A stretch of DNA of 64,000 bases from Staphylococcus phage AH12, in sequence record OR455461.1. One strand, 5' to 3'. Made by a program: the position numbers and the translations under genes. Positions 38,487 through 60,811 of this stretch are shown piece by piece; position 1 is the first letter of the stretch; each line of letters opens with the position of its first letter. Below the pieces are notes generated by a model, which saw only the letters and a list, made by a program, of their open reading frames with translations, had not been told where the DNA came from and did no database searches.

Positions 38487-38497
38487 TAATTTTATTA

Positions 38498-38544
38498 GAA
38501 AGATATATGATAATATCTTTCTTCATTATTATAATATATACTTA
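38498..38544 (-). promoter_or_regulatory. Promoter-like motif TAAGTATATATTATAATAATGAAG plus hairpin GAAAGATATTATCATATATCTTTC (read on the minus strand)
   Basis: The same module recurs at 48128-48176 and 48823-48870, and promoter-motif variants recur at six further sites. Confidence 0.45.
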
Positions 38545-38548
38545 ATCT

Positions 38549-38854
38549 TTATTTCGTTTCAAACTTTTCAATGCCTTTTTCTTCAATAACTACATCTGCA
38601 TTTAATACTTGTAAACGTTTACCATCTACATTAATAACAATGTAACTACCGCCTGCTTCATCACTATATTTAGTTCTGATTTTCTTTCCTTCATATTGAT
38701 GTAATACTTTACCATCTTTACTATATATAGTTACTTTTCTTTCTAGACCTGATGTATCTGATTTATGATCTTTAGTAGCATCATCAAACCATGTACAACC
38801 TGCTAACACTGTTGTTAATAATAAAACTCCAAATAACATTAAAATCTTTTTCAT
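38549..38854 (-). CDS. Putative lipoprotein
   Basis: MKKILMLFGVLLLTTVLAGCTWF has a signal peptide with the lipobox LAGC. Confidence 0.55.
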   Translation of the reverse strand: MKKILMLFGVLLLTTVLAGCTWFDDATKDHKSDTSGLERKVTIYSKDGKVLHQYEGKKIRTKYSDEAGGSYIVINVDGKRLQVLNADVVIEEKGIEKFETK

Positions 38855-38871
38855 AATTTATTTTCTCCATT

Positions 38872-39357
38872 CTATTCTAGATAATATATTCCTTCACTAA
38901 TATCAATTCCATGCTTTTTTAAATCAGAAGATTTGACTAAATTATTTTTACATACTAATTGTCCATCAAATCTATTTGTAATAATTCCTTTATTATTTAC
39001 TTTTTTAGCAATTGCATGATCTGAAATTCTAATGAATTTAAAATTATTATTTTTTACATATATTGATATAGACCTTTTATTACCGGAAAAATTAGTTATA
39101 TAACCACTTCTAACTAATTCATTTGTTAAACTTCCTTTTACATTACCTAATTCTAAAATACTTTCATTTGTTTTAGAATTAATAAATTTCTTCTTAATAT
39201 CTTCCCCTAACATCACATGGTCATTAATCTCTTTTACTATAGGCATCGTATTAAAGTTGTTCTTCTGTGAGTAGTCTAGAAGAAAGAATAATAAATCTTC
39301 AATTCCTTCTTCTGTGACTGGAAAGACCTCCTTATTTTTATTCTCTAAATACTTCAT
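38872..39357 (-). CDS. Hypothetical protein
   Basis: 161-aa ORF. Confidence 0.45.
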   Translation of the reverse strand: MKYLENKNKEVFPVTEEGIEDLLFFLLDYSQKNNFNTMPIVKEINDHVMLGEDIKKKFINSKTNESILELGNVKGSLTNELVRSGYITNFSGNKRSISIYVKNNNFKFIRISDHAIAKKVNNKGIITNRFDGQLVCKNNLVKSSDLKKHGIDISEGIYYLE

Positions 39358-39384
39358 CCGTTTAATCTCCTTTAATTATATTAT

Positions 39385-39717
39385 TTATACAAAACTATTT
39401 AATTCTTTCATATGATAACTTCCTAACTCTAATTTAAGATGGAAATTCTCTATCATTTTATAATTTAAACCATGTTCTTCTAATAATTCTACATTGATAG
39501 TTTCTTCATCAATTTCTAATATTTCTTTTAATGTAAATATATCTGAAGATACTACTGTTAGAGAATCTGCTAAATTATCAAGATCTTTTTCTCTAGAATC
39601 ATCTATATTATAGACGAAACTTTCTTCCATTAAATGCTTGCAATTAGATATAACAATTAAGTCTCCTACAATTTTATCATAAATTCTATCTATAACTTTT
39701 TTACTATCTTTTAACAT
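39385..39717 (-). CDS. Hypothetical protein
   Basis: 110-aa ORF. Confidence 0.45.
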   Translation of the reverse strand: MLKDSKKVIDRIYDKIVGDLIVISNCKHLMEESFVYNIDDSREKDLDNLADSLTVVSSDIFTLKEILEIDEETINVELLEEHGLNYKMIENFHLKLELGSYHMKELNSFV

Positions 39718-39788
39718 TATCCATTCACTCCTATTATTTTAATTGATATGAAGTTTATCAACTTCATTTATATAATATATACTTATAA

Positions 39789-40259
39789 TTAATTTAAATA
39801 GATATTTTTATTGTAACTATCCTTACCTAATTTATTACTTATATTAATATCAAATATTAAATCTCCAGTTACAGATTTATCTTTACTATTAATACTTTTT
39901 ACTAACATCATTGTAATTGAATTATTGTAAGTTAAAGTTTCTATAGTTGTATATATTTTAATATCTTTACTTATATCATCTTTTTTAATATTCCTTACTA
40001 ATTTTAAATCTCCATTGTCTATTAAAGTACCCACTTCTGTATCTAATAGTTCAATAATGCAATCAATAAAATCTTCTGCTTTATGAAACAGATTGTGTTT
40101 TTCATTAAGAATATAAGTTCTATTTGGTTTAACTTCAGTTTCTTTATTAATTGTATTTAATGATTTGTATATGAAATTATTAATATAATTTTGTGTAACT
40201 TCAACTGGTAATTTTAAATTATTATTTATTAATTTGTCTATATTCTTTTTATTCTTCAT
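39789..40259 (-). CDS. Hypothetical protein
   Basis: 156-aa ORF. Confidence 0.45.
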   Translation of the reverse strand: MKNKKNIDKLINNNLKLPVEVTQNYINNFIYKSLNTINKETEVKPNRTYILNEKHNLFHKAEDFIDCIIELLDTEVGTLIDNGDLKLVRNIKKDDISKDIKIYTTIETLTYNNSITMMLVKSINSKDKSVTGDLIFDINISNKLGKDSYNKNIYLN

Positions 40260-40711
40260 TATACAAAATTATCCTTTACTAAATTATTTTTATACTCTTT
40301 CTCTGTTATATCTTTTAAATTAAAATCCATTGAATTATGATATTCTTCATTGAGATTATTTTTAATAATTAATAGTACTTTGTCTATTATTTTTATTAAT
40401 CCTTCTTCATCTTCTGGAATAAGTATCGTATCATCATAATATTGTTCATATTCAAATTCATTTTTTAATTTACTTATAATTAAATTATTATCATCTTTAA
40501 CTATTAAACCATCATCTTCTTCACCATAAAAGAAAAATATAGTATTTTCAGATAAATTTTCGATACCAAAAGATATTTCACTGGATAGTTTTAATCCAAA
40601 ACTATTCACCTTAAATATTTCACTTTTTATTAATTCATCAAAGACTATTTCTTTACTTTTACCTTGAAAATAACATTCTTTTCCTCTTAAAATTGTTTTA
40701 AAGTATTCCAT
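40259..40711 (-). CDS. Paralogous family protein with conserved C-terminal tag
   Basis: 150 aa. Ends ...EKEYKNNLVKDNFV. Confidence 0.45.
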   Translation of the reverse strand: MEYFKTILRGKECYFQGKSKEIVFDELIKSEIFKVNSFGLKLSSEISFGIENLSENTIFFFYGEEDDGLIVKDDNNLIISKLKNEFEYEQYYDDTILIPEDEEGLIKIIDKVLLIIKNNLNEEYHNSMDFNLKDITEKEYKNNLVKDNFV

Positions 40712-40723
40712 ATTGAGATCTCC

Positions 40724-41188
40724 TTAAATTTCATTAATAATATTAGCTAAATATTCATTGTGATTTAATTCTATACGTCTAGATTCATCTACATTATTTT
40801 CTATATCATCTATAAAGCTATCGAAAAGATTATCAAGTAATTCAATAAATTTCTCATCAGAACCTCTTTCTTTATATCTATTTAGATAAATTTCTTTGTC
40901 AGATCGTTTAGGATAAACCACTACAAATTCTAAACCACTATCATTTAATCCTTGAATAACTTCTTTATGAGTAGATACAAAGATATAATCCATTACATTC
41001 TTAAAGTATAAGTCTCTAATGTAAGTTAAATAATTCTTTGGAAATCTAGGATCTCTAACTTTTTCTCCATCTTTTACTAACCATGAGAAGCTAGTTGAAT
41101 CTGAATCGGATGTTCTTAAGAATGTGATATTATTTTTAATATAAGATTTACCTGTACCTGGAAATGCTGCGATTATTTTAGTATTCAT
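40724..41188 (-). CDS. P-loop NTPase or nucleotide kinase-like protein
   Basis: An N-terminal Walker A motif IIAAFPGTGKSY in a 154-aa protein. Confidence 0.45.
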   Translation of the reverse strand: MNTKIIAAFPGTGKSYIKNNITFLRTSDSDSTSFSWLVKDGEKVRDPRFPKNYLTYIRDLYFKNVMDYIFVSTHKEVIQGLNDSGLEFVVVYPKRSDKEIYLNRYKERGSDEKFIELLDNLFDSFIDDIENNVDESRRIELNHNEYLANIINEI

Positions 41189-41799: not shown

Positions 41800-41806
41800 T
41801 TTATTA

Positions 41807-42974: not shown

Positions 42975-42981
42975 TTTATTA

Positions 42982-43176
42982 TCACTCACCTTTCTTTTTT
43001 CTATAAAATGTTCTTCCATGCATTGTTTCGTAGTATTTAATAATATTAGTAATGCATCCCCTACTCACATTAAATCTTTTTGCAAATTGATCTAATGTTT
43101 TCCAATTATTATGAACTATATATTGCATTATTTCTTTTCTTTCTTTAGGTGTGAATTTATAATTTCTTCCAGACAT
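42982..43176 (-). CDS. Small HTH DNA-binding protein
   Basis: 64 aa. TLDQFAKRFNVSRGCITNIIKY is helix-turn-helix-like. Confidence 0.4.
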   Translation of the reverse strand: MSGRNYKFTPKERKEIMQYIVHNNWKTLDQFAKRFNVSRGCITNIIKYYETMHGRTFYRKKKGE

Positions 43177-43191
43177 AATTAAACTTCTCCT

Positions 43192-43698: not shown

Positions 43699-43764
43699 TT
43701 CAACTCCTGATTAAGTAATTAAATAATCCCAATGAGAATAATACATCTCATTGGGATATTATAT

Positions 43765-44295
43765 TTATAATTTTTTATATTCCTTAAATAATTCATCTAA
43801 TTCATTATCTTTATATTCACTTACTCTTTCTTTTAAGTTCTTTTCTTTATTTAATTTCTCCATTCTTATTTTCATTAATTTTTCTAATTTTTCTTTTTTG
43901 TTATCTTTAGAAATATATTCAACATGTGTTGTTAATTCATTATCAAAGAATGTTATAATATTTTTATATTCAAAAGATTCACCTTCTTGATTAATTCTTT
44001 GATCTAAATCGTCTACAGAGTTTACATATTCTGATTGTATAAATTCTTCTTCATCCATAATTTTTAATACTTTAACAGCTTTAACTGAACTTGCAAATTT
44101 TTCTAAATCTTCTTTATAAACTCCCTCACCATTTAAATTAACTTCACTTAAATTTAAATTAGAAACCAATGCATATTTATGGAAATAAGAATTTTCTTTT
44201 TCTAATAAATATTCTGGTATTTTATAAATATACTCTCTTCCTTTAAACTCTTTTTGACTTTGAAATTGTACTACTCCATAATAGTTATTTTCCAT
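43765..44295 (-). CDS. Hypothetical protein
   Basis: 176-aa ORF with a charged, coiled-coil-like C-terminus. Confidence 0.45.
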   Translation of the reverse strand: MENNYYGVVQFQSQKEFKGREYIYKIPEYLLEKENSYFHKYALVSNLNLSEVNLNGEGVYKEDLEKFASSVKAVKVLKIMDEEEFIQSEYVNSVDDLDQRINQEGESFEYKNIITFFDNELTTHVEYISKDNKKEKLEKLMKIRMEKLNKEKNLKERVSEYKDNELDELFKEYKKL

Positions 44296-44361
44296 GATAA
44301 AAACTCCTTTAATTTTTTTTGAGTAATATCAATTAATATTACTCATTTTTATAATATATAT

Positions 44362-45033
44362 TTAAATTTGAGATAATAGAAAGTATATAGTTAATAATCC
44401 CATTATAATATGAAAATAGAATAATTTTTTATTTATTCTTTCTTCATATACTTTAAATATTATGCTATCTAAATACTTTTCTAAGTCCTTATTATCTTTA
44501 AAATTTTCTATAAGTTCTTCAAATTTAATTATATTTCCATCTTTATCTTTCATTTCTAAATTACTAAATACATATTTCTTATTTTCAAAACTTAAATTTC
44601 CATCACTTTCTTTTATTAATTCATATTGAAATAATGTATGTCTTATCATAGGTATTAGACTCATTATAATTATAATGAATATACCCATATAAGTAATATC
44701 AGTTATCTCATAGTTTGCATTCACTATATATAAAGAGTAAAATATTATTGTATAAATAATTACATCATACCCTTTCAAAATTTTTCTTATAATTATATTT
44801 ATTATAAGTATTATAAAGAAATAATATACGATATATGATTCAACTACTTCATGGTTAAATACAAGTGAAACTATTGGAAATACTAAGCATGATAATGTTA
44901 ATACAGTTGGTAAAAACTTCTTATCTAATTTTTCTTTATATGCTGCTATAAGAATTTTAAATAAAGAAAAATAAGTAATGTATACCATTATTACAGTTAA
45001 AATTGTTACTATGATTTCTTCCACTTTATACAC
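44362..45033 (-). CDS. Polytopic membrane protein
   Basis: 223 aa with about 5-6 hydrophobic segments. Confidence 0.5.
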   Translation of the reverse strand: MYKVEEIIVTILTVIMVYITYFSLFKILIAAYKEKLDKKFLPTVLTLSCLVFPIVSLVFNHEVVESYIVYYFFIILIINIIIRKILKGYDVIIYTIIFYSLYIVNANYEITDITYMGIFIIIIMSLIPMIRHTLFQYELIKESDGNLSFENKKYVFSNLEMKDKDGNIIKFEELIENFKDNKDLEKYLDSIIFKVYEERINKKLFYFHIIMGLLTIYFLLSQI

Positions 45034-45099
45034 TTCTTTCTTGTAAAAAAATAATTAATGAAGATCATGGATCTATGAAAAGATCCATGATCAAATAAT

Positions 45100-45342: not shown

Positions 45343-45366
45343 TTTTTTTCTCCTTTATAATTTATA

Positions 45367-45798: not shown

Positions 45799-45825
45799 AA
45801 TAATTTCCTCTTTTCTAATTTATTT

Positions 45826-46946: not shown

Positions 46947-47158
46947 AATAATTCCACCTTTACCTTTTAATTTTTAATATGTAGAGTGGATCATAGAAAT
47001 AATCTACTCTTTTAAATCTATTTATCTTCATTGTTATTATTGAAGACTTCTTTCATAAATTTGAAACAACCTGTTGCTTTCATGAATACAAGTAACACGA
47101 TGATTGTAATAAAGTTTGCGATTAACATATCCGATACACCTCCTTATAGTTTAATTGA

Positions 47159-47356
47159 TTATTTCCAAAAATTTCCTTTTCTAATTTCTCCTACTGTATA
47201 ATTAATTAATAATGATATTGCTGCTAGTACTAATCCAAGTGCTAAAGATTTTCCTTCTACGTATCCAATCATTTCTCCTATGATAAAACCAAGTATAAGA
47301 GTAAACCAAAATAATATCCATGGCTTTAGTTTCAATAATCTTTTTTCTTCATTCAT
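47159..47356 (-). CDS. Small membrane protein
   Basis: 65 aa with two hydrophobic segments. Confidence 0.4.
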   Translation of the reverse strand: MNEEKRLLKLKPWILFWFTLILGFIIGEMIGYVEGKSLALGLVLAAISLLINYTVGEIRKGNFWK

Positions 47357-47592
47357 TATCTAAACACATCTCCTTTATCATTATTCACTCTAATATAATA
47401 CACTTTATTACTTTCTTGGATTTTAGATTTTCTTTCATCTCCAATTACATAATTAATTGCTATAGTAATTAATGGTGTTAACATAGAAATTGTAGCTCCT
47501 ACAAAGAAATCATTTGACATTAAACCAATAGTTGAACCTAATATCATACCTACAACTAACGCCCATTCAGTTTTTAATCTTAAAATTTTCAT
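47356..47592 (-). CDS. Small membrane protein
   Basis: 78 aa with two hydrophobic segments. Overlapping stop and start with the downstream gene. Confidence 0.4.
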   Translation of the reverse strand: MKILRLKTEWALVVGMILGSTIGLMSNDFFVGATISMLTPLITIAINYVIGDERKSKIQESNKVYYIRVNNDKGDVFR

Positions 47593-47613
47593 AATAATTT
47601 TCCTCCATTTATA

Positions 47614-47937
47614 TTATTGAATTACTAATTCTTCTTCTTTCCATAGATTATGCTCTTCTTTACCTTGGAAAGATTGATGTAATCTTCCAGCTTTAGAATA
47701 ATCACTTTTACTTTTATACTCTTTAATTTTATTCTTTTTGACATTTCTCAGATATCTTTCTGATCTAATGTCAAATCTTAATTTGTCTATTTGTTTCATT
47801 AAATTTAATTTCTTTTCAAAATCTTTATTTGAAATTGTTTTGCCATTAGACCTGATTTCTTTGTCTCGTATCACTTGTAATTCTTTTTTTAGTTGTTTAA
47901 TTTTTTCTTCTCTCACCATTTTAATTACACCCCCCAT
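47614..47937 (-). CDS. Small basic protein, paralogue of 48214..48522
   Basis: Shares DYSKAGRLHQSFQGKEEH with DEFSKAGRLHRKYQKQEKH, plus a coiled-coil N-terminus. Confidence 0.45.
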   Translation of the reverse strand: MGGVIKMVREEKIKQLKKELQVIRDKEIRSNGKTISNKDFEKKLNLMKQIDKLRFDIRSERYLRNVKKNKIKEYKSKSDYSKAGRLHQSFQGKEEHNLWKEEELVIQ

Positions 47938-48213
47938 TTTCTTAATCCGAAAGCTGTAGTATCAAAGCTCTCAATCATTGAATCTATTTCTCTATAAGCC
48001 TGTTCTGATGGATATCTTACTTCATCATAGTAATTGATTAAATCCTCTTCGTTAATTTTAGTTTCCTTTTCAAATTCAATTCCATTTAATAATTCTAACA
48101 TAATAATTTCTCCTTTTAATTTTATTAGAAAGAGATTATGATAATCTCTTTCTTCATTATTATAATATATACTTATTTTAATATACGTTACGCTTTTTCA
48201 AATTCAATTGATT

Positions 48214-48522
48214 CTATGAATTATTGAATATTCTGTGTTTCTCTTGTTTCTGATATTTTCTATGAAGTCTACCTGCTTTAGAAAATTCATCTGAACCTTT
48301 GTAGATATTATCTTCATAATTTTGATCTTTAACTTTCGCTATATGTTTTTCTCTATCGAAGATGTTTTGTTCCTGTTCTACTAGTTCATTAATTTCTTTA
48401 ATTAGTCTTTCTTTTTCTTTGTAAAGTCTTTCTGTTATAGTGCTTGTTCTACTTACTCCCATATCAGAATATATGTTTTTTAATTCTTTTCTTAATTCTG
48501 CTAATTTAGTTTTGTTATTCAT
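48214..48522 (-). CDS. Small basic protein, paralogue of 47614..47937
   Basis: 102 aa containing the SKAGRLH motif. Confidence 0.45.
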   Translation of the reverse strand: MNNKTKLAELRKELKNIYSDMGVSRTSTITERLYKEKERLIKEINELVEQEQNIFDREKHIAKVKDQNYEDNIYKGSDEFSKAGRLHRKYQKQEKHRIFNNS

Positions 48523-48881
48523 TGATTTTAGCTCCTTTTTATTGTTGGATCATAGAAAATTATAGACTTAATGAACTTGATACATTATATTCATTAAGTC
48601 TTTAAAACAATTATCCTCTTTCCTCCTCTATCCTAAATTAGAAAACGGATGTCCAAACTTTATTTCTGAAGCTCTTTTAAGAACTTGTTTTTCCATTTCC
48701 TTTTCCATGATTAATTCGTCAATTTTATTGTTTAATATACCTAATACAATCCCTACTCCAAATCCTACTAATGTTTTTAATACTAATTTTTTCATAATAA
48801 TTTCTCCTTTAATTTTTATTAGAAAGATATTAATATTCTATCTTTCTTCATTATTATAATATATACTTATTTTAGTATACA

Positions 48882-49514
48882 TTACGCTTTTTCTAATATA
48901 CCTAAATCATATAAATGGTTAACCATAATATAGAATTCATCTTTATCTATATTTTCATTATTTGGTATCATTTCAAATAAATCATATTTATTTATATTAA
49001 TAATATCTACATTATCCTTATTTTTATCTAAAATACTCTCTATACGAATTGTATTGTGTAATAGATTATTTAGTTCAGGTAGATAAAAATAGATATTTTG
49101 ATACTTACAATTATCTGAATTTAACTCTATAATTAATCCATCTAGTTTGTCTTTAATGTATTTGATAACTCTATCAAATGTGCTACCGTTTGTTAATTTA
49201 AAACCAGTAGATCTGATTACTTCTTTAGTATCAAAAATATTAGATTTAACAATATCATTTAACATCATTAAATCTTCTTTCAATAATTTGATATTTAAAT
49301 TAGATTCATTAAAGTTGTTAGATTTTAATGCTTGATATCTAGATTTTTCTAAATAGTAAATAATGAAATTGTAATAATCTTTTAACGGTTTATAAGATAT
49401 ATATTCTTCATTAATAATATCCATATACTCATTTATTAGTTTTGTATAACTATCATTCGTTTTTATTTCTTTAATATTTGTTACTAGTTCATTGACTTTA
49501 ATCATACATACCAC
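48882..49514 (-). CDS. Hypothetical protein
   Basis: 210-aa ORF preceded by the TTCTATGATCCAAC motif. Confidence 0.45.
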   Translation of the reverse strand: MVCMIKVNELVTNIKEIKTNDSYTKLINEYMDIINEEYISYKPLKDYYNFIIYYLEKSRYQALKSNNFNESNLNIKLLKEDLMMLNDIVKSNIFDTKEVIRSTGFKLTNGSTFDRVIKYIKDKLDGLIIELNSDNCKYQNIYFYLPELNNLLHNTIRIESILDKNKDNVDIININKYDLFEMIPNNENIDKDEFYIMVNHLYDLGILEKA

Positions 49515-49545
49515 ACCTTTATTTTTATTGTTGGATCATAGAAAA

Positions 49546-49788
49546 TTACATACCTAGAAAACTAGATATAACATTTACTCGCATTTCAACTATTGATTTT
49601 ACTGTTGATGATAACATAACAAGTGATATCGCTAATATAAGTTTTGTCCTTAAGCTTAATTTTCTTTTAAATATATAATTCTCTAAATAAGTAGATAAGT
49701 ATTTAGAAATTTCAAAAGATCCAAAAGCTATCGCTATTGGTATTAGCGTGTAATATAACAAAGCGATTATTATATCTAATATAAACAT
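49546..49788 (-). CDS. Small membrane protein
   Basis: 80 aa with two hydrophobic segments. The promoter-like motif lies upstream. Confidence 0.4.
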   Translation of the reverse strand: MFILDIIIALLYYTLIPIAIAFGSFEISKYLSTYLENYIFKRKLSLRTKLILAISLVMLSSTVKSIVEMRVNVISSFLGM

Positions 49789-49871
49789 TGATTCATCTCC
49801 TTTTTATTTATTTAAAATATATTATTATATATCTTCATTATTATAATATATATTTAAATTAATGATAATTA

Positions 49872-49920
49872 CGAAAAAAAAAATATTAGAGGTAACGATC
49901 ATTAATTTGATCGTTACCTC
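49872..49920 (-). terminator. Rho-independent terminator; member of the GAGGTAATGA hairpin family
   Basis: GAGGTAACGATCATTAATTTGATCGTTACCTC. On the minus strand it is followed by TAATATTTTTTTTTTCG. Confidence 0.55.
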
Positions 49921-50639
49921 AATTTTATTAATTCTTTTATTACTGTATAAATATTAATATTGAAACCTTTAAATATAATTACAATCATATTCCATATTAA
50001 TAATAATATTTGAACTGATATAATTATATATTTTTCATTGATATTGTTATTAATATTGTAATGTGATAATTCAAAATTTATTGTATTCATATTTAAAATT
50101 AATATTGAAAATATTAATGGAAATAAAGAAAAGAATGAGGCAAAAGTAACTCTCATACTTTTATCTTTATAAATTCCATAATCTGAAGAATAATGTAATA
50201 CCGTTATTATAAGCAGTATCATTATAAAAAACATAAATACTGAATTTAATATAGAAGAATCTGATATTAATAAACCAAATAAAAATATATTAGCAACAAT
50301 AAATATTCTTAAAATACTTTTCATTTTAATAAAGCCAACAAATACTAAACCTAATATTGTATCAATAAGTATTGCACTTAATATTACGATTAAAATACTC
50401 CAATCCCATATTAAATTTCCATATGAAGATATATCATCAATTATAATTTGTAAAAATATTATTAATAATAAACTTAAATAAACTGTAAAAGAAACTGGAG
50501 TAATGTCATATATACTACTCTTTTTATCTTTTATACTCTTATAGGTATAAAAATAAAATGTAATATATACTGATATTAATAAGAAAGGTATATTCAATAT
50601 CAATGATATAAAATTTAATTTATTTATTAAATCCATCAT
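49914..50639 (-). CDS. Polytopic membrane protein (about 7 TM)
   Basis: 241 aa, very hydrophobic. Confidence 0.5.
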   Translation of the reverse strand: MMDLINKLNFISLILNIPFLLISVYITFYFYTYKSIKDKKSSIYDITPVSFTVYLSLLLIIFLQIIIDDISSYGNLIWDWSILIVILSAILIDTILGLVFVGFIKMKSILRIFIVANIFLFGLLISDSSILNSVFMFFIMILLIITVLHYSSDYGIYKDKSMRVTFASFFSLFPLIFSILILNMNTINFELSHYNINNNINEKYIIISVQILLLIWNMIVIIFKGFNINIYTVIKELIKLR

Positions 50640-50658
50640 AATTTAAAACACATTCTTT

Positions 50659-51276
50659 CTATTCTGATTTACTAAATTCATTAATAAAATTATATTCTTG
50701 ATCAATATCTTTAAAGTATTCATCTATAATTTTACTCTGTTTAGATAGTATATTAATCTCTGTTACACTTGGTTTAAGATTAAGAACTTTCTGATTCACT
50801 GTCTCTGATTTAAAAACATCATTTAAACGTTTATTCATAAGAGTAGTATCTATTTTAGAAATATATTCATTTAATTCAATTGTATCAATATCAACAGGTA
50901 TAATAAAGTATAGGTTGGTCTTAATTATTTCATTATCTTCTGTTTTATTTCCTGTATAAATAATATTAACTTTATCAACTGATTTTAATTCAGAATTCAT
51001 AATATTATCAATAATTTTAGCATTTGAATTTTTAAAGTCTTTATCAATATTATCTAAATAATTGTAAAACTCATCAAATCTAACGATATGACCTGTATGG
51101 AAATCAAATCTCATTTTAAACTGATTTTTTCCTTTTTTATTGAATTTAACAACTTCATTAATGTCTTTTATATCATGTGTGTAATCTGGTTTAACTTTTT
51201 TATTAAATTCAAAATTAGACAATAATAAATAATTATTATTGTCTTTATCTTGAAATATTAGAAATTTATTTTTCAT
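50659..51276 (-). CDS. Hypothetical protein
   Basis: 205-aa ORF. Confidence 0.45.
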   Translation of the reverse strand: MKNKFLIFQDKDNNNYLLLSNFEFNKKVKPDYTHDIKDINEVVKFNKKGKNQFKMRFDFHTGHIVRFDEFYNYLDNIDKDFKNSNAKIIDNIMNSELKSVDKVNIIYTGNKTEDNEIIKTNLYFIIPVDIDTIELNEYISKIDTTLMNKRLNDVFKSETVNQKVLNLKPSVTEINILSKQSKIIDEYFKDIDQEYNFINEFSKSE

Positions 51277-51290
51277 AATTCATTTCATCC

Positions 51291-51818
51291 TTATCTGTTT
51301 TTAATTTTGTCAAATCCGTCCATTAATTTAAGTAATTTATATGATATTAATGTTATTGATAAATTATTATAAGTTGATACATAAAGTTCTTTAAGTTCTT
51401 TATTATTAAATTCATCTTCATTAAGTTTATTAATAATTTCATCTAAAGATGTTTCTAATATTAATACTGATTTATAATCATCTTTATTAATATTTGTCTT
51501 AATATCATTTGATGTTTTTAATATAGTACTAATATTCTCTTTATCAGTTCCATTAACTTCATTATTTTTAAATATATCAATTATATTATCTTCAATATTC
51601 TTTAATTCTTTTAGTGAATTGTTAATATTGATACTTATATACATTTTATTATTTTCTAAATCTCTCTTATTACTGATATTCTCTAATATACCTTTTAAGA
51701 TATTCTTATTAGGAAATTCTTCCAATTTACTACTTGTTTGAAAATCCGTTAATTCTTTAAATATTTCTTCAAATGTAAAAACTTCTTGTTTATTTGACAT
51801 ATCCATTTCACTCTCCAT
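51291..51818 (-). CDS. Hypothetical protein
   Basis: 175-aa ORF preceded by the promoter-like motif and a GGTAATGAGC hairpin. Confidence 0.45.
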   Translation of the reverse strand: MESEMDMSNKQEVFTFEEIFKELTDFQTSSKLEEFPNKNILKGILENISNKRDLENNKMYISININNSLKELKNIEDNIIDIFKNNEVNGTDKENISTILKTSNDIKTNINKDDYKSVLILETSLDEIINKLNEDEFNNKELKELYVSTYNNLSITLISYKLLKLMDGFDKIKNR

Positions 51819-51890
51819 TTTAATAATTTAATATAGGTAATGAGCGTTATAATATTTGCTCATTACCTATTTATAATATATACTTATTTC

Positions 51891-52952
51891 TTATTTAATA
51901 CTACTGAATAATATTGGATCTGATATTTTAATTCTGTCTTTAGGTACTCCAAAATCTTTTTCTTCTTCATGTAAATTGTAATAAATATTAGCATCATTAA
52001 GTTTAACTGCAATTGAATTACCTAACATTCTATAACTTTTATAATCTGATAATTTAACATCCTTATCAGAATAAATATTTATATTCATATTAAGTAAACC
52101 TAATTTACTTAAATAATCAAATACAAATTTATATCCTTTTCCATTATTAGCTATAAATAAATCATTATCATTTATCTCCCTATTATGAATATGATTAAAT
52201 ACAGATATAATGTCAAAGAAACCTTCTGCTATGTGAACATTATAAACATTTTGGTCTAATACCAAATTATTTGTGATTGAATAAAATCTATTACTTTCTT
52301 CTGCTAAATTTTTAAATATCTTTTGTTTAAAGTGTTTTTTACCAGTAACTTCATTAAACATCTTTCTACAATTTATAGTGTTTCTATCATTTAACATATA
52401 ACTAAAATAATTTTGATTTAATGTATTTATTTGAAGCTTATTATCCATATCAAAATTATTCTTTCTATAGAAATCATTTATATTTAATATTAGTTTATAT
52501 AAACTAATATCTGCTTTACTAATAGTAATTCCTAATCTTTCATTGATATAATTAATTTTTCCTATTTCTAATTCATTGTATTGATCTGGATAGTAATCTA
52601 ATATTTTAGTATTTCTATCTATAAAACTTTTACCGTATTTTCTATTTAAGTTAGATAAGTAATTATTATATTCACTATTAATATAACTACCAATATCTGC
52701 TTGATTAGAGTTTAACATTTCTAGTACTTTACTATTCATAACTCCTGAAGCATTACATCTTTGACAGAAATATTTGAATGGTGTATTATTTTGAATATAC
52801 ATATGTGTTGATTTATTAGATTTTTTAGAATCACCACAAAATGGACATCTAACCATTGTTTCATCTTGAGAAGAAGTTAATCTACATGGATTAACATTCT
52901 GTTTTAGATGATGATATAAAGTTAAATCGTATTTACTCATGTAGATTAACAC
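51891..52952 (-). CDS. DNA primase-like protein (zinc ribbon plus TOPRIM)
   Basis: RCPFCGDSKKS...YFCQRCNASG is a C-x2-C...C-x2-C zinc ribbon. It is followed by AEGFFDIIS (an EGxxD-like TOPRIM motif) and acidic SDKDV. Confidence 0.45.
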   Translation of the reverse strand: MLIYMSKYDLTLYHHLKQNVNPCRLTSSQDETMVRCPFCGDSKKSNKSTHMYIQNNTPFKYFCQRCNASGVMNSKVLEMLNSNQADIGSYINSEYNNYLSNLNRKYGKSFIDRNTKILDYYPDQYNELEIGKINYINERLGITISKADISLYKLILNINDFYRKNNFDMDNKLQINTLNQNYFSYMLNDRNTINCRKMFNEVTGKKHFKQKIFKNLAEESNRFYSITNNLVLDQNVYNVHIAEGFFDIISVFNHIHNREINDNDLFIANNGKGYKFVFDYLSKLGLLNMNINIYSDKDVKLSDYKSYRMLGNSIAVKLNDANIYYNLHEEEKDFGVPKDRIKISDPILFSSIK

Positions 52953-52966
52953 TTCTTTCTTTTATA

Positions 52967-53611
52967 TTATAATAAACTAATAATTTTTCGAACGATTTTA
53001 TCAAAGATAGATTCTTGTTTTCCTGCTTTTTTAATATCTACATTATCACGATATTCTTTACCTGTTTCAGGATCTTTTTGAACATTTTGCATTTTATCTT
53101 TAATATTTTTAGCTTTTTCTTCTGTTTTATTTTTAAGACCTTCTGCTGCTTCTTTTGTTTTCTCTACTGTAGGTGATTCAACTACAGTTTCCACAGCTAA
53201 TTCTACTTTACTTGGTTTAACATCATCTCCACGTAAAATTTTCTTATATTCGTTAAATGTAGGATAACCTTCTTTAGCAAATCTATAATCTTCAGTTAAA
53301 TGTCCAAAATATTCAGCTCTACGAATATGAGTAATAGTGTGAGTTTTTCTTTCAGTTCCATATTTTTCTTTGAATTCTTTTAAGATGTAAGTATTACCAT
53401 GTCCTTTATCGATTAAACCAGCAATGAAGTGAACTTGCTCTTTAGTTAATTTTGGTGTACCTTTAGTAGTTGTTTGTTTTTTAGTCATTTTTGAATCATC
53501 CTTTTTATTATTTTTTGACAAATCTATAATTTTTTCGTTATTTGAGTTTTCTAATTTAATTTCTTTTTCTAACTTTTTTCTTTGTCGTTTATTCATGTCG
53601 CATTTCTCCAT
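52967..53611 (-). CDS. Hypothetical basic protein
   Basis: 214 aa with K-rich termini. Confidence 0.4.
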   Translation of the reverse strand: MEKCDMNKRQRKKLEKEIKLENSNNEKIIDLSKNNKKDDSKMTKKQTTTKGTPKLTKEQVHFIAGLIDKGHGNTYILKEFKEKYGTERKTHTITHIRRAEYFGHLTEDYRFAKEGYPTFNEYKKILRGDDVKPSKVELAVETVVESPTVEKTKEAAEGLKNKTEEKAKNIKDKMQNVQKDPETGKEYRDNVDIKKAGKQESIFDKIVRKIISLL

Positions 53612-54187: not shown

Positions 54188-54254
54188 TTCTATAAACCCT
54201 CCATATTTATAAAGTATAATAAGAATGGATAATCATAAAGATTATCCATTAAAA

Positions 54255-54455
54255 TTACTTATTCACTTTGATTGCATAATCATAAAGTATCAAAGCAGTA
54301 TTAAAAGCTATATTATCTAATTTATTAATTCCCCTTTTAATTCTACCAATTTTAGCTCTACTTATTCCAGTACATTTTTCAATTTCATAATTACTAATCT
54401 CTTTATTATTTAATAGTTTTTCTATCTCATATTTAACTTCTTCAGCTTTATTCAC
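54255..54455 (-). CDS. Small XRE-like HTH protein (GTG start); overlaps the end of the beta-prime exon 2 in another frame
   Basis: ISNYEIEKCTGISRAKIGRIKRG is a classic HTH_3-like helix-turn-helix. Confidence 0.4.
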   Translation of the reverse strand: MNKAEEVKYEIEKLLNNKEISNYEIEKCTGISRAKIGRIKRGINKLDNIAFNTALILYDYAIKVNK

Positions 54456-54657
54456 TAGCTTTAATACCTACATTTTTTGATTTAGGGTTATTTAGTAAAT
54501 AAACAGCTATTTGTGAGTCTTTATTAAGCGAGTAAGTTCTATTAAATAATCCATCATTATATGAAATTAATTGATTTACTGGATCTTGGACTTTTAACTG
54601 TTCGTATTGTTCTTCTGAAAATAGTGCTATGATGTTTAAAGTGTCACCATCATACGT
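54448..54657 (-). CDS. RNA polymerase beta-prime N-terminal fragment, exon 2 (catalytic DxDGD motif)
   Basis: Minus-strand frame (N)YDGDTLNIIALFSEEQYEQLKVQDPVNQLISYNDG...VGIKASE* matches E. coli [39 protein letters not shown]. Downstream of two intron cores. Confidence 0.6.
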   Translation of the reverse strand, partial: TYDGDTLNIIALFSEEQYEQLKVQDPVNQLISYNDGLFNRTYSLNKDSQIAVYLLNNPKSKNVGIKASE

Positions 54658-54830
54658 TTATCTTAATCTATATAAATATTATCATATAGACGAGACTATA
54701 TCATTACCATTTAAGGTAGAATATATTTAGTCGTTGAACAAATTATATTAATTTGATGCTGATTAATTTAATAATCTTCTCAGCAATTAATATTCTTTTC
54801 TATAAATCTCTCAATTTAAAGCGACTATTA
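54658..54830 (-). ncRNA. Group I intron core F (second of two in the beta-prime gene); boundaries approximate
   Basis: Reverse complement carries TTAATTGCTGAGAAGATTATTAAATTAATCAGCATC (54754-54790), GTTCAACGACTAAATAT (54725-54739) and GATATAGTCT (54693-54702), plus a P9-like CGTCTATATGATAATATTTATATAG. Confidence 0.55.
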
Positions 54831-54998
54831 TTTAATCGGCCATTTGTATTAACTTCATAGAGATTTTTCTATAAAGATTAGACTATATCAAACTCATATT
54901 AGTGAGTGAATTTATTTAGTCGTTGAACAATCATCTTGATTGATGCTGATTAATTTAATAATCTTCTCAGCAATTAAAATTCTTTTGACATTATATTA
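54830..54998 (-). ncRNA. Group I intron core G (first of two in the beta-prime gene); boundaries approximate
   Basis: Its P4-P6 segment is identical to that of core F (54942-54977). GTTCAACGACTAAAT (54914-54928) and GATATAGTCT (54880-54889). Confidence 0.55.
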
Positions 54999-56120
54999 CT
55001 ATAATGAAAGGCTACCTTTATAACCCATACCAGCAAGTATATTATTACTAATACCTACTACTGATGATTCTATATCTTGAATTATATCTTTAATTTTCAA
55101 TATTTGAACAGAGCTTTCACTAATTGAGGGATTTCTATTTAAAATAACTCTCATTCCATTTTCAGTTTTATCAACTAGTTCTCTCATATATTTATATACT
55201 TTAGGATTAAATGTATCTAATGCTCTGTCTAATATTTCTTCACCTTTAGCTAAAGGAATATTTTCTGTTACATACATTAAATTTGCTAAGATAGGTTTAT
55301 ATACTTCTAAGAAGATAGTGTAATTTAATCTGATTTCATTTAATTTAAGGTCAGGTGCTGGAACAATTACTGAACGTGCAGAGAAACCAACACGACTACC
55401 CATTAGTAATTTACGAATAGTTCCACCTTTACCTTTAATATTCTCATTAATTACACGATCACTAATATTAATACTATCATTCTGAATTTTACTTAATAGA
55501 TTTAATTTTTGTAACTCCACTGAATCATCTGTATAATGTCTATCAAGTTCTTTAATACTATTACTATGTGCAATTAATAAATTATAATCTTTATTAATTT
55601 CAGAATGTCTAAAAGTTTTAGTAGCTTTGTTAACTGTAGCAGGTCTTAATTTAGGACTAAATACAGTTACATAATTTTGGAATAGTAAATCAGATAAATA
55701 CCATTGTACTACTCTATTGTAATCTTTAGTTTTACGTTTATCACGTTTAACTTCTTCTTTAAGAATTTTTAAGAAATTCTTTCTAAATTCAATTAAACCA
55801 ATATAAGAGTTATGATCATCTTCAGGTTCAATTACATTACCATTCTCATCAATAGGTTTTTCAGAACTAATAATTTCTTGGAATCTTTTATTACCAATTA
55901 ATTTTTTAACACGTTCATATCCTAATGGATTTAATATATAATTATTACCTAAATCTACAATAGCTTCATTAGTAATATTATCTGCTTCTGAATCAGGACC
56001 GAAGATTTTTTCACTGAAAATACCATCTTCAGTGAAATCTCCTTTTTTATCTATTGATTCATGATTAGTTACAACTGGAACATTTTCTAAATCCTTTTTC
56101 TTGAGTAAAAATCTAACCAT
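54999..56120 (-). CDS. RNA polymerase beta-prime N-terminal fragment, exon 1
   Basis: [10 protein letters not shown] matches E. coli [23 protein letters not shown] matches [46 protein letters not shown] matches [37 protein letters not shown] matches PVLLNRAPT. Confidence 0.75.
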   Translation of the reverse strand: [373 protein letters not shown]

Positions 56121-56123
56121 AAC

Positions 56124-57746: not shown

Positions 57747-57907
57747 TTATCCGACACTCTCCCTCTTGGTAATAAAAACTTTATAAGATATGAGTTATTT
57801 CTGGTTTTTATTTTTTTACAAAATGAAAACTCATAACAATATTATATCATAAAACTTAGAAAAATGCTAGGAAAATAATACTATTTTTCTAAAAATTTTA
57901 AAAATAA

Positions 57908-58240
57908 ATGAAAGAAAGGAATCTAAAAATGAATAGACAAATTCAAGATCAAAAACATTTCTTCCGTGAATGGTCTAAACGAACTGGTTTATCTCAAAGA
58001 GAATTAGTCGATGCTTATTCAGAAATGATCGATATTTTAGTTGAATCAGCTAATGATTCAGATCAAACTAAAACTATTATTCCTGAAATTGGTGTTTTAG
58101 AAGTTAAACCTGAAGATATGCGTAAACGTAGAAATCCAAGAACTAATCAAATTGTAGTTACTGAACCTACACGTAAAGCACACATTCGTTTATATCCTAG
58201 ACTTAAAAATAGATTTAAACCTGAAGAACTAGAAAAATAA
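57908..58240 (+). CDS. HU/IHF-family DNA-binding protein
   Basis: GVLEVKPEDMRKRRNPRTNQIVVTEPTRKAHIRLYPRLK matches the HU consensus [32 protein letters not shown]. Confidence 0.65.
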   Translation: MKERNLKMNRQIQDQKHFFREWSKRTGLSQRELVDAYSEMIDILVESANDSDQTKTIIPEIGVLEVKPEDMRKRRNPRTNQIVVTEPTRKAHIRLYPRLKNRFKPEELEK

Positions 58241-58290
58241 AAATAATTCAAAAGCCATAATATACTTATTTGTATATTATGGCAATTTTA

Positions 58291-58569
58291 TTATTCATTT
58301 TCATTAATGTCTTCTTTAGTTTCTTTTCTTTTAATAGTTAAATTAAGTACTTTTCTGAAAAATTTAATTTTAAGATTTAATAAGAAATTACTATCTGATT
58401 TAATCTTAACATCAAACTTCTGCTCTTTATCTTCTTCAGTTTCAGGTAAAGTAACAAATTCAAAGTCTACTCTTTCTAAGTCTTCTCTAGATAATAATTC
58501 TTTCTTTTGACTTTCATTAAGTTTTAACCCTAATCTTTTTTCTAATTTCTTTTGATTTCTTTTATTCAT
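58291..58569 (-). CDS. Small K/E-rich protein
   Basis: 92-aa ORF. Confidence 0.4.
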   Translation of the reverse strand: MNKRNQKKLEKRLGLKLNESQKKELLSREDLERVDFEFVTLPETEEDKEQKFDVKIKSDSNFLLNLKIKFFRKVLNLTIKRKETKEDINENE

Positions 58570-58598
58570 ATTAATAAGTCATCTCCATATTATAATTA

Positions 58599-58982
58599 TT
58601 AATCTTTATAGTCTGGTTTAGCTGGAATCCACATCTTAGGATTATAATTAATTTCATATTGATATTTGCTAACATTCTTAGTTGTAACGTCTTCAACAGT
58701 ATATGAAACATTATCAGATAGACCAATGATGTGTTTTTGATATTTACCATTTTCATTTTCTACAACTATTTCCAACTGATTATCATCTTTATCTGCTTTG
58801 ATAGACATACGTCCAGACATCTGAAAAATAATATCATTCTTAATAGCATTTATAACAGTTACTTTTCTAACTACATTAAAATTATCTGACTCTTCAGACA
58901 TATTCTGACTAACCTTATCTGCTTGAGAACACCCTGTTAATAATAAAACGAATAATAATGGTAGTACTAAAAATTTCTTCAT
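58599..58982 (-). CDS. Putative lipoprotein
   Basis: MKKFLVLPLLFVLLLTGCSQ has a signal peptide with the lipobox LTGC. Confidence 0.55.
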   Translation of the reverse strand: MKKFLVLPLLFVLLLTGCSQADKVSQNMSEESDNFNVVRKVTVINAIKNDIIFQMSGRMSIKADKDDNQLEIVVENENGKYQKHIIGLSDNVSYTVEDVTTKNVSKYQYEINYNPKMWIPAKPDYKD

Positions 58983-59016
58983 GATTGTTTTCTCCTTTGA
59001 TTGTCTTAATATATTA

Positions 59017-59070
59017 GAGGTAATGACAAATTGTATGTCATTACCTCATTTTTATAATATATATTTAAAT
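59017..59070 (-). promoter_or_regulatory. Promoter-like motif TTTAAATATATATTATAAA plus a GAGGTAATGACA...TGTCATTACCTC hairpin upstream of the lipoprotein gene
   Basis: Same motif-hairpin-RBS architecture as at 51833-51890. Confidence 0.4.
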
Positions 59071-59286
59071 AATATCTTCCTCATAATTAGGAATAATTAA
59101 TTCTTGTTCTAATAAATTATCTAACTTACTTTTTTCTAATACAAATCCATTACCATCTTTATCTGAATATAAAAGTAATTCAGATTCACCATCAATAAAG
59201 TTTTTTAAACCTCTACGGTGTAAAAAGAATTTTCTTTCGTTCTTCTTATATTCAAATGAGAATGGTATTTTTCCTTCTTCCATCAT
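59065..59286 (-). CDS. Small hypothetical protein
   Basis: 73-aa ORF. Confidence 0.4.
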   Translation of the reverse strand: MMEEGKIPFSFEYKKNERKFFLHRRGLKNFIDGESELLLYSDKDGNGFVLEKSKLDNLLEQELIIPNYEEDII

Positions 59287-59576
59287 GCTACAACATCTCC
59301 ATCTTTAGTTTCAACATTCTTTGAATTTAATTCAATACTAAAATTCTTAATATGATTCAAGTGATTTAATTTTAATTTACTTCTAAAACTTTCCTTATCA
59401 ATACTTTCGATATTATAAGTATTCAATATCATTTGCATTGTAGTAAAGTTTTCTGAATCATATATTTCTAATAACGTAATCTCCAATTTATTAATAGCTT
59501 CTTCAAACGTATCAAACGTAAATGATTCAACTATTCTTCTATTGAATTTTAATTTAAATCCATATACTCTTTTCAT
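59283..59576 (-). CDS. Hypothetical protein
   Basis: 97-aa ORF overlapping the downstream start by 4 nt. Confidence 0.4.
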   Translation of the reverse strand: MKRVYGFKLKFNRRIVESFTFDTFEEAINKLEITLLEIYDSENFTTMQMILNTYNIESIDKESFRSKLKLNHLNHIKNFSIELNSKNVETKDGDVVA

Positions 59577-59596
59577 TTAAATTCTCTCCTTTCTAT

Positions 59597-60247
59597 TTAA
59601 CTAAATAAAGAATTTATAAATATAGATCTATATTCTTTAATTGTAATTTCTTTATTATAATTGAAGAATATATTTTTAGACTGCTTTAAAGTTAAAAAGA
59701 ATTCAGCTAATGTTAATGCTTTAAGATATTGCTTTTCATTGTCTCTATTTTGTTTAAATAAATTAATGAATATATCTTCAATTCCTATTTCTTTAAAATT
59801 GTCTATATAGAATTCTTCTTTAATATCCTTCTCTACATATGGTACTTTAGTTATTGTAAAATATGAATTATTAGTTTTAACTAAATTATTTGAATCTAAT
59901 AAATCATCTATTTCTGGTTCAGTAAGACTATTAATTTCTTTAAAATCTCTGAAATTATTTACTTTTTTAATATTCTCTTTTATTAAATTTAATGTCTGAT
60001 GATTTACTATTTTACTATAAAAATTCATAGTAGTTCTTTCATTTGAGAATATATTTTCCTCCAATATTAAAGAATAACTAGCATTATTAATCATTAAAGC
60101 ATTACTATTTTCTGTAATATCCAATTGCTTTTCAATTTGTTCCATTATATCTTTATCGTAATCTATAAGTAGAACAATTGTGTTTAAATTCTTTTTATAC
60201 GTATTCCTAGATCTTTTTTGAAAATTAATTAAGTACATTATAACCAA
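59597..60247 (-). CDS. Hypothetical protein
   Basis: 216-aa ORF. Confidence 0.45.
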   Translation of the reverse strand: MVIMYLINFQKRSRNTYKKNLNTIVLLIDYDKDIMEQIEKQLDITENSNALMINNASYSLILEENIFSNERTTMNFYSKIVNHQTLNLIKENIKKVNNFRDFKEINSLTEPEIDDLLDSNNLVKTNNSYFTITKVPYVEKDIKEEFYIDNFKEIGIEDIFINLFKQNRDNEKQYLKALTLAEFFLTLKQSKNIFFNYNKEITIKEYRSIFINSLFS

Positions 60248-60310
60248 CTATATCACCACACTTATATATTAATGAATTTATAATAATTACACGTTAGTTT
60301 CATTCATTAA

Positions 60311-60715
60311 TTATTTAAATGAATTCGTTATAATTAAATTTTTAAATTGCTTTTCAGTTAATATATCTTTTAAATATCGATGGATAGTTTCTTTAAAATC
60401 ATATATTATATAATTATCATTTTCTTTTATTAAAGCACATAAATTATCACTACCATTATTATATTTCTTCAATATTTTATTTATAGTATAGTAGTCAATC
60501 TTATTATTTTCAAATATTATTGATGATAAAGCTGGTTTAATAATCACTTCATAAAAATTACTAAATGATTTTGTATAAGATTCTACATCATCTTTATCAT
60601 CAATGTGACTGAAAAATATTTGTCTTATTACAGGATAAGTATATGATCTCAATACATTATACTTAATTATTTGACTTGACAATTCATCATAATCAAATTT
60701 ATTTAATTTTTTCAT
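60311..60715 (-). CDS. Paralogous family protein (tail ...KNLIITNSFK)
   Basis: 134 aa. The C-terminus resembles the family tag. Confidence 0.45.
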   Translation of the reverse strand: MKKLNKFDYDELSSQIIKYNVLRSYTYPVIRQIFFSHIDDKDDVESYTKSFSNFYEVIIKPALSSIIFENNKIDYYTINKILKKYNNGSDNLCALIKENDNYIIYDFKETIHRYLKDILTEKQFKNLIITNSFK

Positions 60716-60811
60716 TATCTAACACCTCCTCATATAATAAATATATTTAAGACAACGTATATATTTAGTATACATTTTCTCATTTTAATAATATATATTT
60801 AAATCATATTT

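Follow-up and report, generated by a model that had tools for sequence, protein, structure and literature searches.

A probable AR9-type early promoter coupled to a 5'-terminal RNA hairpin in Staphylococcus phage AH12 and related jumbo phages

In the genome of Staphylococcus phage AH12, a stretch of 64,000 nucleotides (sequence record OR455461.1; hereafter the window, about 24% G+C) carries a recurring AT-rich motif that is followed each time by a stem-loop, a ribosome-binding site (RBS) and a gene. Most copies lie between 34 and 64 kb, in a single long minus-strand block that contains small unknown genes, a primase gene, pieces of a gene for the beta' subunit of a non-virion RNA polymerase and a gene for an NAD-dependent ligase; the ligase of phage SA1 belongs to an early cluster in RNA sequencing (RNA-seq). 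Window positions 47000-53000 are 94% identical to the Staphylococcus jumbo phages PB50 (vB_StaM_PB50) and Machias and, over the aligned parts, 74-88% identical to PALS_2, UFV_DC4, Madawaska, S6, LY01, SA1 and MarsHill. On the basis of the PB50 annotation and the preprint of Korn et al., the window phage and its relatives are AR9/PBS1-like phages, which possess two multisubunit RNA polymerases, one of the virion and one non-virion. The annotation in which this was examined, that of PB50, lists virion RNA polymerase beta and beta' genes next to the non-virion multisubunit enzyme; inside the window the RNA polymerase genes amount to the non-virion beta' only, and an Rpb1 domain was detected.

The motif, written as TATATATTAT-N6-G, occurs exactly ten times in the window. 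Nine of these occurrences, on the minus strand, are those of the original prediction, a reading of the sequence by a model, and all nine were recovered at or within a few bases of where it had placed them; the tenth lies on the plus strand (G at 14807). Its 12-mer core TATATATTATAA is present in eight copies, all on the minus strand, against 0.89 expected, and none of 100 dinucleotide shuffles reached eight. Allowing one mismatch gives 27 matches against 17 expected, which is near the AT-rich background, so that the signal is confined to the strict motif. An exact 12-mer at 15302-15313 (minus strand) lies within an open reading frame (ORF) of the opposite strand and is probably not a promoter, because the G is absent and no gene comes after it. 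The whole PB50 genome was assembled and scanned as well, yielding 36 consensus promoters, and the consensus of these 36 sites and that of the 10 window sites are both ttTAAATATATATTATAAaAaT-G; the flanks of the window sites agree with (T/A)AA(A/G). All 10 sites are intergenic and co-oriented with a gene, 41-66 nt 5' of an RBS-preceded ATG, and the order after each promoter is stem-loop, A-rich spacer of 12-20 nt, GGAG-type RBS and ATG, which bears out the earlier claim that a hairpin and an RBS typically follow the motif.

With the conserved G as predicted start (+1), the first minus-strand promoter, TTAAATATATATTATTAAAAT-G at 60781-60800 (-19 to +1, G 60781), would drive ORF 60311-60715 (134 aa), whose Shine-Dalgarno (SD) sequence lies at +51. 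The promoter at 59047-59066 (G 59047) would drive ORF 58599-58982 (127 aa), and the one at 51866-51885 (G 51866), located just 3' of the primase gene, ORF 51291-51806 (171 aa). Three further minus-strand sites precede very small genes, namely 49836-49855 (G 49836; ORF 49546-49788, 80 aa), 48849-48868 (G 48849; ORF 48628-48795, 55 aa) and 48155-48174 (G 48155; ORF 47925-48101, 58 aa), and they are followed by 44344-44363 (G 44344; ORF 43765-44295, 176 aa), 39765-39784 (G 39765; ORF 39385-39717, 110 aa) and 38524-38543 (G 38524; ORF 38172-38471, 99 aa, with its true start at ATG 38471). The tenth match, at 14788-14807 on the plus strand (G 14807), would drive ORF 14853-15644 (263 aa). This last promoter sits in a perfect 16-nt inverted repeat (14791-14836, TATATATTATATAAAT ... 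ATTTATATAATATATA), as a result of which the minus strand bears a near-copy of the promoter with C replacing the start G and with no gene downstream; the repeat could be a bidirectional site, a decoy site or a chance AT-rich palindrome.

In phage AR9, the early promoter AAATATATATTAT-(6N)-G+1 was mapped by differential RNA sequencing (dRNA-seq) and primer extension; AR9 early promoters are active in chloramphenicol without new protein synthesis, and the injected virion polymerase was named as the enzyme that reads them (Lavysh et al. 2017, PMC5312081). The consensus of PB50 and the window, ttTAAATATATATTATAAaAaTG, equals AR9's tttAAATATATATTATaata.tG, with identical spacing to the start G, and in both AR9 and the window the sites are intergenic and lie 5' of early or replication genes of phages with two multisubunit RNA polymerases. 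In MarsHill, a member of the same clade as the window phage, an AR9-like motif centred on the same TATATTAT was reported upstream of 29 genes by MEME (Korn et al., bioRxiv 10.1101/2020.12.14.422802), in a description from which the coupling to a hairpin at +1 is absent. As far as sequence can tell, the motif is very probably the early promoter of AR9/PBS1-like jumbo phages. In view of the AR9 mapping and the MarsHill report the promoter itself is already known and not new, and the same holds for the idea of a phage-specific promoter class possibly read by a phage RNA polymerase, which is nevertheless supported by the match to the AR9 consensus, the virion and non-virion polymerase genes of PB50 and the lack of enrichment of sigma-70-type sites. 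By analogy with AR9, a virion-packaged multisubunit RNA polymerase, injected with the DNA, would recognise the motif and transcription would begin at the conserved G, seven bases past ...TATATTAT; in the minus-strand block, each promoter would then stand at the start of a short unit of early transcription.

We consider it very improbable that the motif is instead a promoter of the host sigma-A type whose extended -10 is AT-rich, or an AT-rich repeated cassette without promoter function. TATAAT is indeed embedded in most copies, the stretch 49868-49840 scores 10/12 as a sigma-70-type site, and certain copies have clearly arisen by duplication of a cassette in which the upstream gene's end is included. 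However, the embedded TATAAT, at -9 to -4, is too near the conserved G, about 20 nt are conserved in a way that matches the mapped virion-polymerase promoters of AR9, and the sites are all intergenic and co-oriented with an RBS-bearing gene. A scan of the region for host sigma-70-type promoters, which have TTGACA at -35 and TATAAT at -10 spaced by 16-18 nt, found 205 against 197 expected, thus no enrichment, and no conserved -35, on which grounds a host sigma-70/sigma-A promoter was rejected.

Some promoters share more than the motif. An extended upstream block, AAAGCGTAA(C/T)(G/A)TA..., is common to two promoters of the window (48174-48195 and 48868-48889) and four of PB50 (83598, 84938, 126295 and 205638). 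It consists of the end of the preceding small gene plus spacer, so that whole units (gene end, promoter and GAAGAAAG leader) have apparently been duplicated; in AR9, a similar ccGTATTAAAA element is found at about -35 to -25 of roughly nine early promoters (Table S2). Two PB50 sites differ in what they precede. At 205638 (minus strand, locus L133) the early promoter stands directly before a tRNA D-arm consensus, GAAGAAAGTT-TATCTAGCTCAGTTGGTAGAGCA, and so seems, by its sequence, to drive a tRNA gene. At 153501 (minus strand, loci L131/L132) a consensus early promoter without RBS or ORF faces a non-coding gap of about 1 kb that lies 5' of a reverse transcriptase gene (150938-152491), and that could, from this arrangement, encode a retron-like or template RNA.

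The hairpins behind the promoters were scored as terminal-hairpin energy, for stems with their 5' base at +1 to +3 of the predicted transcript. The stem starts in this interval at 10 of 10 window sites, seven of the hairpins being strong and three weak, and the mean energy is -8.3 kcal/mol at the 10 sites compared to -1.6 kcal/mol at 1500 random G-start positions of the window (Mann-Whitney p = 2.8e-7). In a register analysis, in which the 5' base of the stem was forced to each offset, weak A-U extensions into the promoter blurred the minimum over -12 to +4, and the stem boundary was therefore judged by the first G-C pair and by unconstrained folds. A search of the whole window against Rfam returned no match at gathering score, and neither the Rfam nor the tRNA scans gave anything relevant.

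The strongest window hairpin is the 5'-terminal stem-loop GAGGTAATGACA...TGTCATTACCTC at 59017-59047 (minus strand, +1 to +31, 12 bp, -17.3 kcal/mol). Four others on the minus strand begin at +1 as well: 60749-60781 (+1 to +33, -7.1 kcal/mol), the PB50 orthologue of which has a different stem sequence (GAGAGATGTAT...) with pairing retained; GTAATGAGC...GCTCATTAC at 51837-51866 (+1 to +30, -10.3 kcal/mol), whose orthologues in PALS_2, DC4, Madawaska, S6, LY01 and SA1 keep the stem while inner pairs have changed; GAGTAATATT...AATATTACTC at 44321-44344 (+1 to +24, -8.4 kcal/mol); and the short GAAGTT-GATA-AACTTC at 39750-39765 (+1 to +16, -4.4 kcal/mol). Starting at +3 are AGAAAGATA...TATCTTTCT at 48821-48847 (+3 to +29, -7.5 kcal/mol), AGAAAGAGATTA...TAATCTCTTTCT at 48127-48153 (+3 to +29, -12.2 kcal/mol) and AGAAAGATAT...ATATCTTTCT at 38497-38522 (+3 to +28, -9.3 kcal/mol), all on the minus strand; in the Madawaska orthologue of the first of these, GAAGATAGATAG...CTATCTATCTT, an A-U pair has been swapped for U-A and the stem extends to +1. 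A weak stem-loop at 49814-49835 (minus strand, +2 to +23, -3.1 kcal/mol) is mostly A-U with one G·U, and its orthologues are stronger (-7.5 to -8.3 kcal/mol); the plus-strand site has a weak 5'-terminal stem-loop, GTAAATC...GATTTAT, at 14807-14826 (+1 to +20, -3.6 kcal/mol). The stems quoted in the original prediction proved correct, both GAAAGA...TCTTTC behind the promoters at 38524, 48155 and 48849 and GGTAATGA...TCATTACC at 59047 and 51866, and the three hairpins of the GAAAGA group are paralogous copies, not independent of each other.

The coupling recurs across PB50: terminal hairpins at or below -5 kcal/mol stand behind 24 of the 36 promoters, compared to 13% of background positions (p = 9e-13). 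A detailed set was composed of the 26 PB50 hairpins of -4.4 kcal/mol or stronger, the tRNA site being excluded; 16 of these stems begin at +1 with a G-C pair and all 26 start within +1 to +5. Hairpins are also kept at the orthologous sites in PALS_2, DC4, Madawaska, S6, LY01 and SA1. AR9 on the other hand has a terminal hairpin in only 1 of 25 mapped early transcripts, with a mean of -1.2 kcal/mol that equals background (Fisher p = 6e-7 versus PB50), and since AR9 uses the same promoter without a hairpin, the promoter does not need it. The leaders of AR9, whose start sites are mapped and not predicted as they are here, are mostly short (26-50 nt) and unstructured.

An injected virion polymerase and a hairpin associated with early promoters are also features of phage N4, in which the virion RNA polymerase recognises its promoters by a hairpin of the DNA itself, which has a loop of 3 nt and is located upstream of +1. 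In the window, by contrast, the hairpin lies downstream of +1, is variable and RNA-sense-biased, and its counterpart is dispensable in AR9. An N4-type hairpin promoter was rejected, given the position of the hairpin 3' of the predicted +1 and its absence from AR9 promoters with the same consensus.

Uncultivated phages were covered by a scan of IMG/VR with TAARTATATATTAT-N6-G, which returned 120 loci, mostly single chance matches in AT-rich contigs; the informative loci with multiple sites were L010, L042, L053 and L077. L010 (265 kb, 23% GC) and L042 (29 kb, 36% GC) have the same promoter followed by +1 hairpins, and L053 (286 kb) has the promoter without hairpins. In L042 (IMGVR_UViG_3300006289_000106) the promoters at 1360, 7544 and 9249 precede strong +1 hairpins, two of the three with U-rich tails (ATTCTTTTTAC, CCTATTCTTTTTT); judged by sequence these resemble terminators or attenuators close to the promoter, which the hairpins of the Staphylococcus phage do not. 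Listeria phage LPJP1, sampled over 24.6 kb, has a related, non-identical motif with mixed hairpin status.

The way in which the stems vary points to selection on pairing in the RNA. The 26 PB50 hairpins have 23 distinct 8-mers in their 5' arms, and their own arms fold at -10.0 kcal/mol compared to -2.6 kcal/mol for arms exchanged between sites. In the GAGGTAATGA family (11 sequences, including the 59047 stem), pairing holds in 93.9% of cells, and both sides have changed in 6 of the 12 pairs; its covariation score is 0.339 versus 0.142, was matched by none of 500 shuffles and breaks down once the partners are shifted by 1-3 columns. The GAAGAAAGA family, which includes the 48155 hairpin, is mostly invariant, with pair 18-31 occurring as G-C (7), U-A (5) and G-U (2). 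A MAFFT alignment of all GAAGA-type hairpins (A2) mixed two pairing registers and was for that reason not used for pair counts; the cleaner subfamily alignment (A3) has one covarying pair only. The strand matters too: the sense fold contains 18 G·U pairs and the antisense fold 2, and at 35 unselected sites the sense fold is the more stable in 27 and the antisense fold in 5 (p = 1.6e-5), a random sense-strand control having a small bias only. This sense-strand excess of G·U pairs and the asymmetry in folding indicate an RNA structure and argue against a DNA cruciform or a palindromic operator. Selection hence probably acts on the hairpin as a structure of the RNA, at the 5' end of the transcript, and not as a part of the promoter.

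The same data bear on the suggestion that a regulator of the phage binds the hairpin or palindrome, either as a DNA operator or as an RNA recognised by a translational repressor, and in this way shuts off or times early expression. Its position next to a promoter is typical of operators, and a few stem families do recur at several promoters and across phages (GAGGTAATGAC, GAAGAAAGA). Such a site is nonetheless unlikely in view of the many different arm sequences, the loops that are not conserved within families and the compensatory changes that preserve pairing while the sequence shifts. The strong sense-strand G·U bias speaks against a double-stranded DNA palindrome in particular, and the DNA operator was rejected for its diverse arms and this RNA-sense bias, which also disfavours the operator that had been among the original prediction's three options for the hairpin.

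Of those options, an element for stability of the 5' untranslated region (UTR) fits best. The stem-loop would fold the first 16-33 nt of the mRNA, with the 5'-terminal G usually paired with C, and would be followed by the A-rich single-stranded spacer of 12-20 nt, a strong SD sequence and ATG. Stem-loops preceded by at most about four unpaired 5' nucleotides are what is found, given the predicted start site, in the window (+1 to +3) and PB50 (+1 to +5). A terminal stem-loop of this kind would deny a single-stranded 5' end to the 5'-end-dependent decay enzymes of Firmicutes, keeping off an RppH-type pyrophosphohydrolase, the 5' exonuclease RNase J1/J2 and the 5'-stimulated RNase Y, and because the 5' end is shielded, early phage mRNAs would last longer. 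Both RppH and RNase J require single-stranded 5' ends, and in Bacillus a 5'-proximal RBS is the other classical 5' stabiliser, interchangeable with a stem-loop (PMC3997798).

Leaders with a hairpin have their SD sequence at +34 to +57 and those without one at +2 to +28. The hairpin-less promoters, a minority in the Staphylococcus clade, mostly have the SD sequence very near the 5' end, at +2 to +5 in leaders such as GAAGGGAGG and GAAGGAGG and at +20 to +28 in others, and such promoters, as well as those of AR9, would use a 5'-proximal RBS as the alternative stabiliser. In hairpin leaders the distance from stem to SD is mostly 12-22 nt, broadly like the whole distance from 5' end to SD in AR9, so that the Staphylococcus leader looks like a hairpin added onto an AR9-like leader. 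As the pattern of hairpin or 5'-proximal RBS fits the rule known from Bacillus (PMC3997798), we propose the hairpin to be a stabiliser of early mRNA in the Staphylococcus phages. We infer mRNA stabilisation as its function with about even confidence, and we lean slightly towards the reading as a whole, that is, an AR9-type promoter with a 5'-terminal RNA hairpin that stabilises early mRNA.

Elements of this kind are well known. Stem-loops that stabilise mRNA from the 5' end occur in E. coli ompA and papA, in the B. subtilis aprE leader and in ermC, and like the hairpins described here they lie at or a few nucleotides from the 5' end and act independently of sequence; they are however found on single genes and have measured effects on half-life, whereas here a whole promoter class is involved (24 of 36 promoters in PB50) and the function is predicted. 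The phi10 (gene 10) leader of T7 has a comparable layout: directly behind a promoter for a phage-encoded polymerase, at +1, lies a stem-loop with a stabilising effect on the mRNA, and after it come an unstructured spacer and a strong RBS. It differs in that the polymerase has one subunit, the gene is a late one and the host is Gram-negative, and there is no sequence relationship.

A 5' stem-loop could also act on the phage polymerase while still nascent, in promoter escape, in displacement of RNA from the uracil-DNA template, in a pause close to the promoter or in resistance to termination, as the HK022 put RNA and lambda nut do when they make polymerase termination-resistant. The fixed position directly at +1 behind one promoter class and the selection in the RNA sense are compatible with this, and terminator-like hairpins inside the early block may require read-through. 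Yet AR9 uses the same promoter hairpin-free in 24 of 25 cases, some promoters of the Staphylococcus phages are hairpin-free too, and stem and loop sequences are highly diverse, while known antitermination RNAs have a conserved sequence. We regard such a transcriptional role as unlikely, if slightly less so than the regulator site.

The terminator-like hairpins just mentioned were called elsewhere in the block by a terminator scan (49920-49889, 43757-43726, 38163-38134 and 34596-34561), the scan of 34-54 kb giving 10 terminator-like sites versus 1.2 expected. The promoter-linked hairpins might instead serve the upstream gene, as terminators, as protection of its 3' end or as RNase processing sites that separate cistrons. 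In favour of this, similar hairpins follow stop codons without any promoter (e.g. 38134-38163, 43726-43757 and 34561-34596), and in some cases the predicted start is overrun a little on its upstream side by the inverted repeat. This reading is quite improbable. On the sense strand the scan called no promoter-linked hairpin terminator-like, their tails being A-rich and not U-rich, which means that they are not terminators, and an intrinsic terminator, which would have a GC-rich stem with a U-tract directly behind it, was rejected on this basis; a terminator 3' of a promoter would moreover halt that promoter's own transcript, and the stem mostly begins exactly at the predicted +1. As for processing, the third option of the original prediction, RNase III would be served poorly by stems as short as these (6-14 bp), so that a site of that type is unlikely.

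Strong promoter-less hairpins of 11-15 bp are present right after stop codons at 38134-38163, 43726-43757, 45047-45089, 48545-48600, 54210-54247, 35990-36055 and 58251-58280, some of them with only a distant or partial T-run; they may act in termination, in attenuation or in 3'-end protection. The terminator-like hairpin GAGGTAACGATC...GATCGTTACCTC with T10 (49889-49920) is located just upstream of the 49836 promoter. Window positions 49874-49920 are 90% identical over 47 nt to a hairpin of the Listeria jumbo phage LPJP1 (L138, 4567-4615), and nothing else in the 6-kb query (47000-53000) matched LPJP1 at the DNA level.

Several observations weigh against a stabilising 5'-terminal hairpin. The start G was transferred to the Staphylococcus jumbo phages from the mapping in AR9, and the hairpins at 49836, 39765 and 14807 are weak (-3.1 to -4.4 kcal/mol). 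In PB50, three sites share GAGGTAATGAC and three more have close variants of it, while four share GAAGAAAGA; several hairpins belonging to a few stem families, the sites are not all independent, and a sequence-specific binder of one family is conceivable. The DNA inverted repeat reaches 3-4 nt upstream of the predicted start at 51866 and 1-2 nt at three other sites, which may be no more than A-U pairs that extend the stem by chance, but would equally suit a function in transcripts that read through. Strong hairpins are also common in promoter-less intergenic regions of the genome. Finally, B. subtilis has the same decay enzymes and yet AR9 does without hairpins, so that the hairpin is not obligatory for such a lifestyle.

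There is a small chance of a more specific variant, in which the +1 hairpin would be a mark of the lineage on virion-polymerase transcripts, serving either as an escape from 5'-end-dependent RNA decay or defence that the phage itself unleashes on host mRNA (through a nuclease for host shutoff, say, or RNase J/Y that it has hijacked) or as a requirement of this clade's virion polymerase for productive elongation. If true, either version would explain why a hairpin was gained across the promoter class in the Staphylococcus clade and in L010 and L042, and not in AR9.

As to earlier descriptions, no such hairpin is mentioned in the searchable text of the AR9 paper, the Korn preprint, the PALS2, SA1 and DC4 genome papers, a review of jumbo-phage RNA polymerases and the 201phi2-1 transcriptome paper, and the words "hairpin" and "stem-loop" are absent from the MarsHill report (bioRxiv 10.1101/2020.12.14.422802). 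A motif in the 5' UTRs of early AR9 transcripts is pointed out in the AR9 paper, with a figure but no explanation (PMC5312081). The systematic coupling of this promoter to a 5'-terminal RNA hairpin is therefore apparently undescribed, a modest addition in the form of a clade-specific instance of a well-known kind of element, and not a new kind of system. The sites constitute an early-promoter map (10 in the window and about 36 in PB50), give a precise start-site prediction for Cappable-seq on Staphylococcus jumbo phages and provide compact cassettes of promoter, 5' stabiliser and RBS for engineering these phages, which are candidates for phage therapy. Related phages with the same promoter would differ in the 5' protection of their early mRNA, by a terminal hairpin in the Staphylococcus clade and a 5'-proximal RBS in AR9, and comparing them offers a natural way to study how mRNA decay depends on the 5' end in infected Firmicutes.

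Two neighbouring genes in the block deserve mention. The non-virion RNA polymerase beta' gene is in two pieces (54999-56120 and 54255-54455, minus strand), and the gap between them (54456-55032) contains two tandem sub-threshold matches to group I introns, at 54673-54844 (E = 1.3e-7) and 54859-55032 (E = 5.7e-4), together with two copies of a repeat of about 75 nt, as judged by eye; PB50 has a homing endonuclease gene at this position, which is absent from the window phage. A gene for an HU-like DNA-binding protein (57908-58240, plus strand; Pfam Bac_DNA_binding, E = 2.4e-8) is the sole plus-strand gene within the early block. The HU gene of AR9, g103, is likewise on the opposite strand and adjoins the early promoter of g104.

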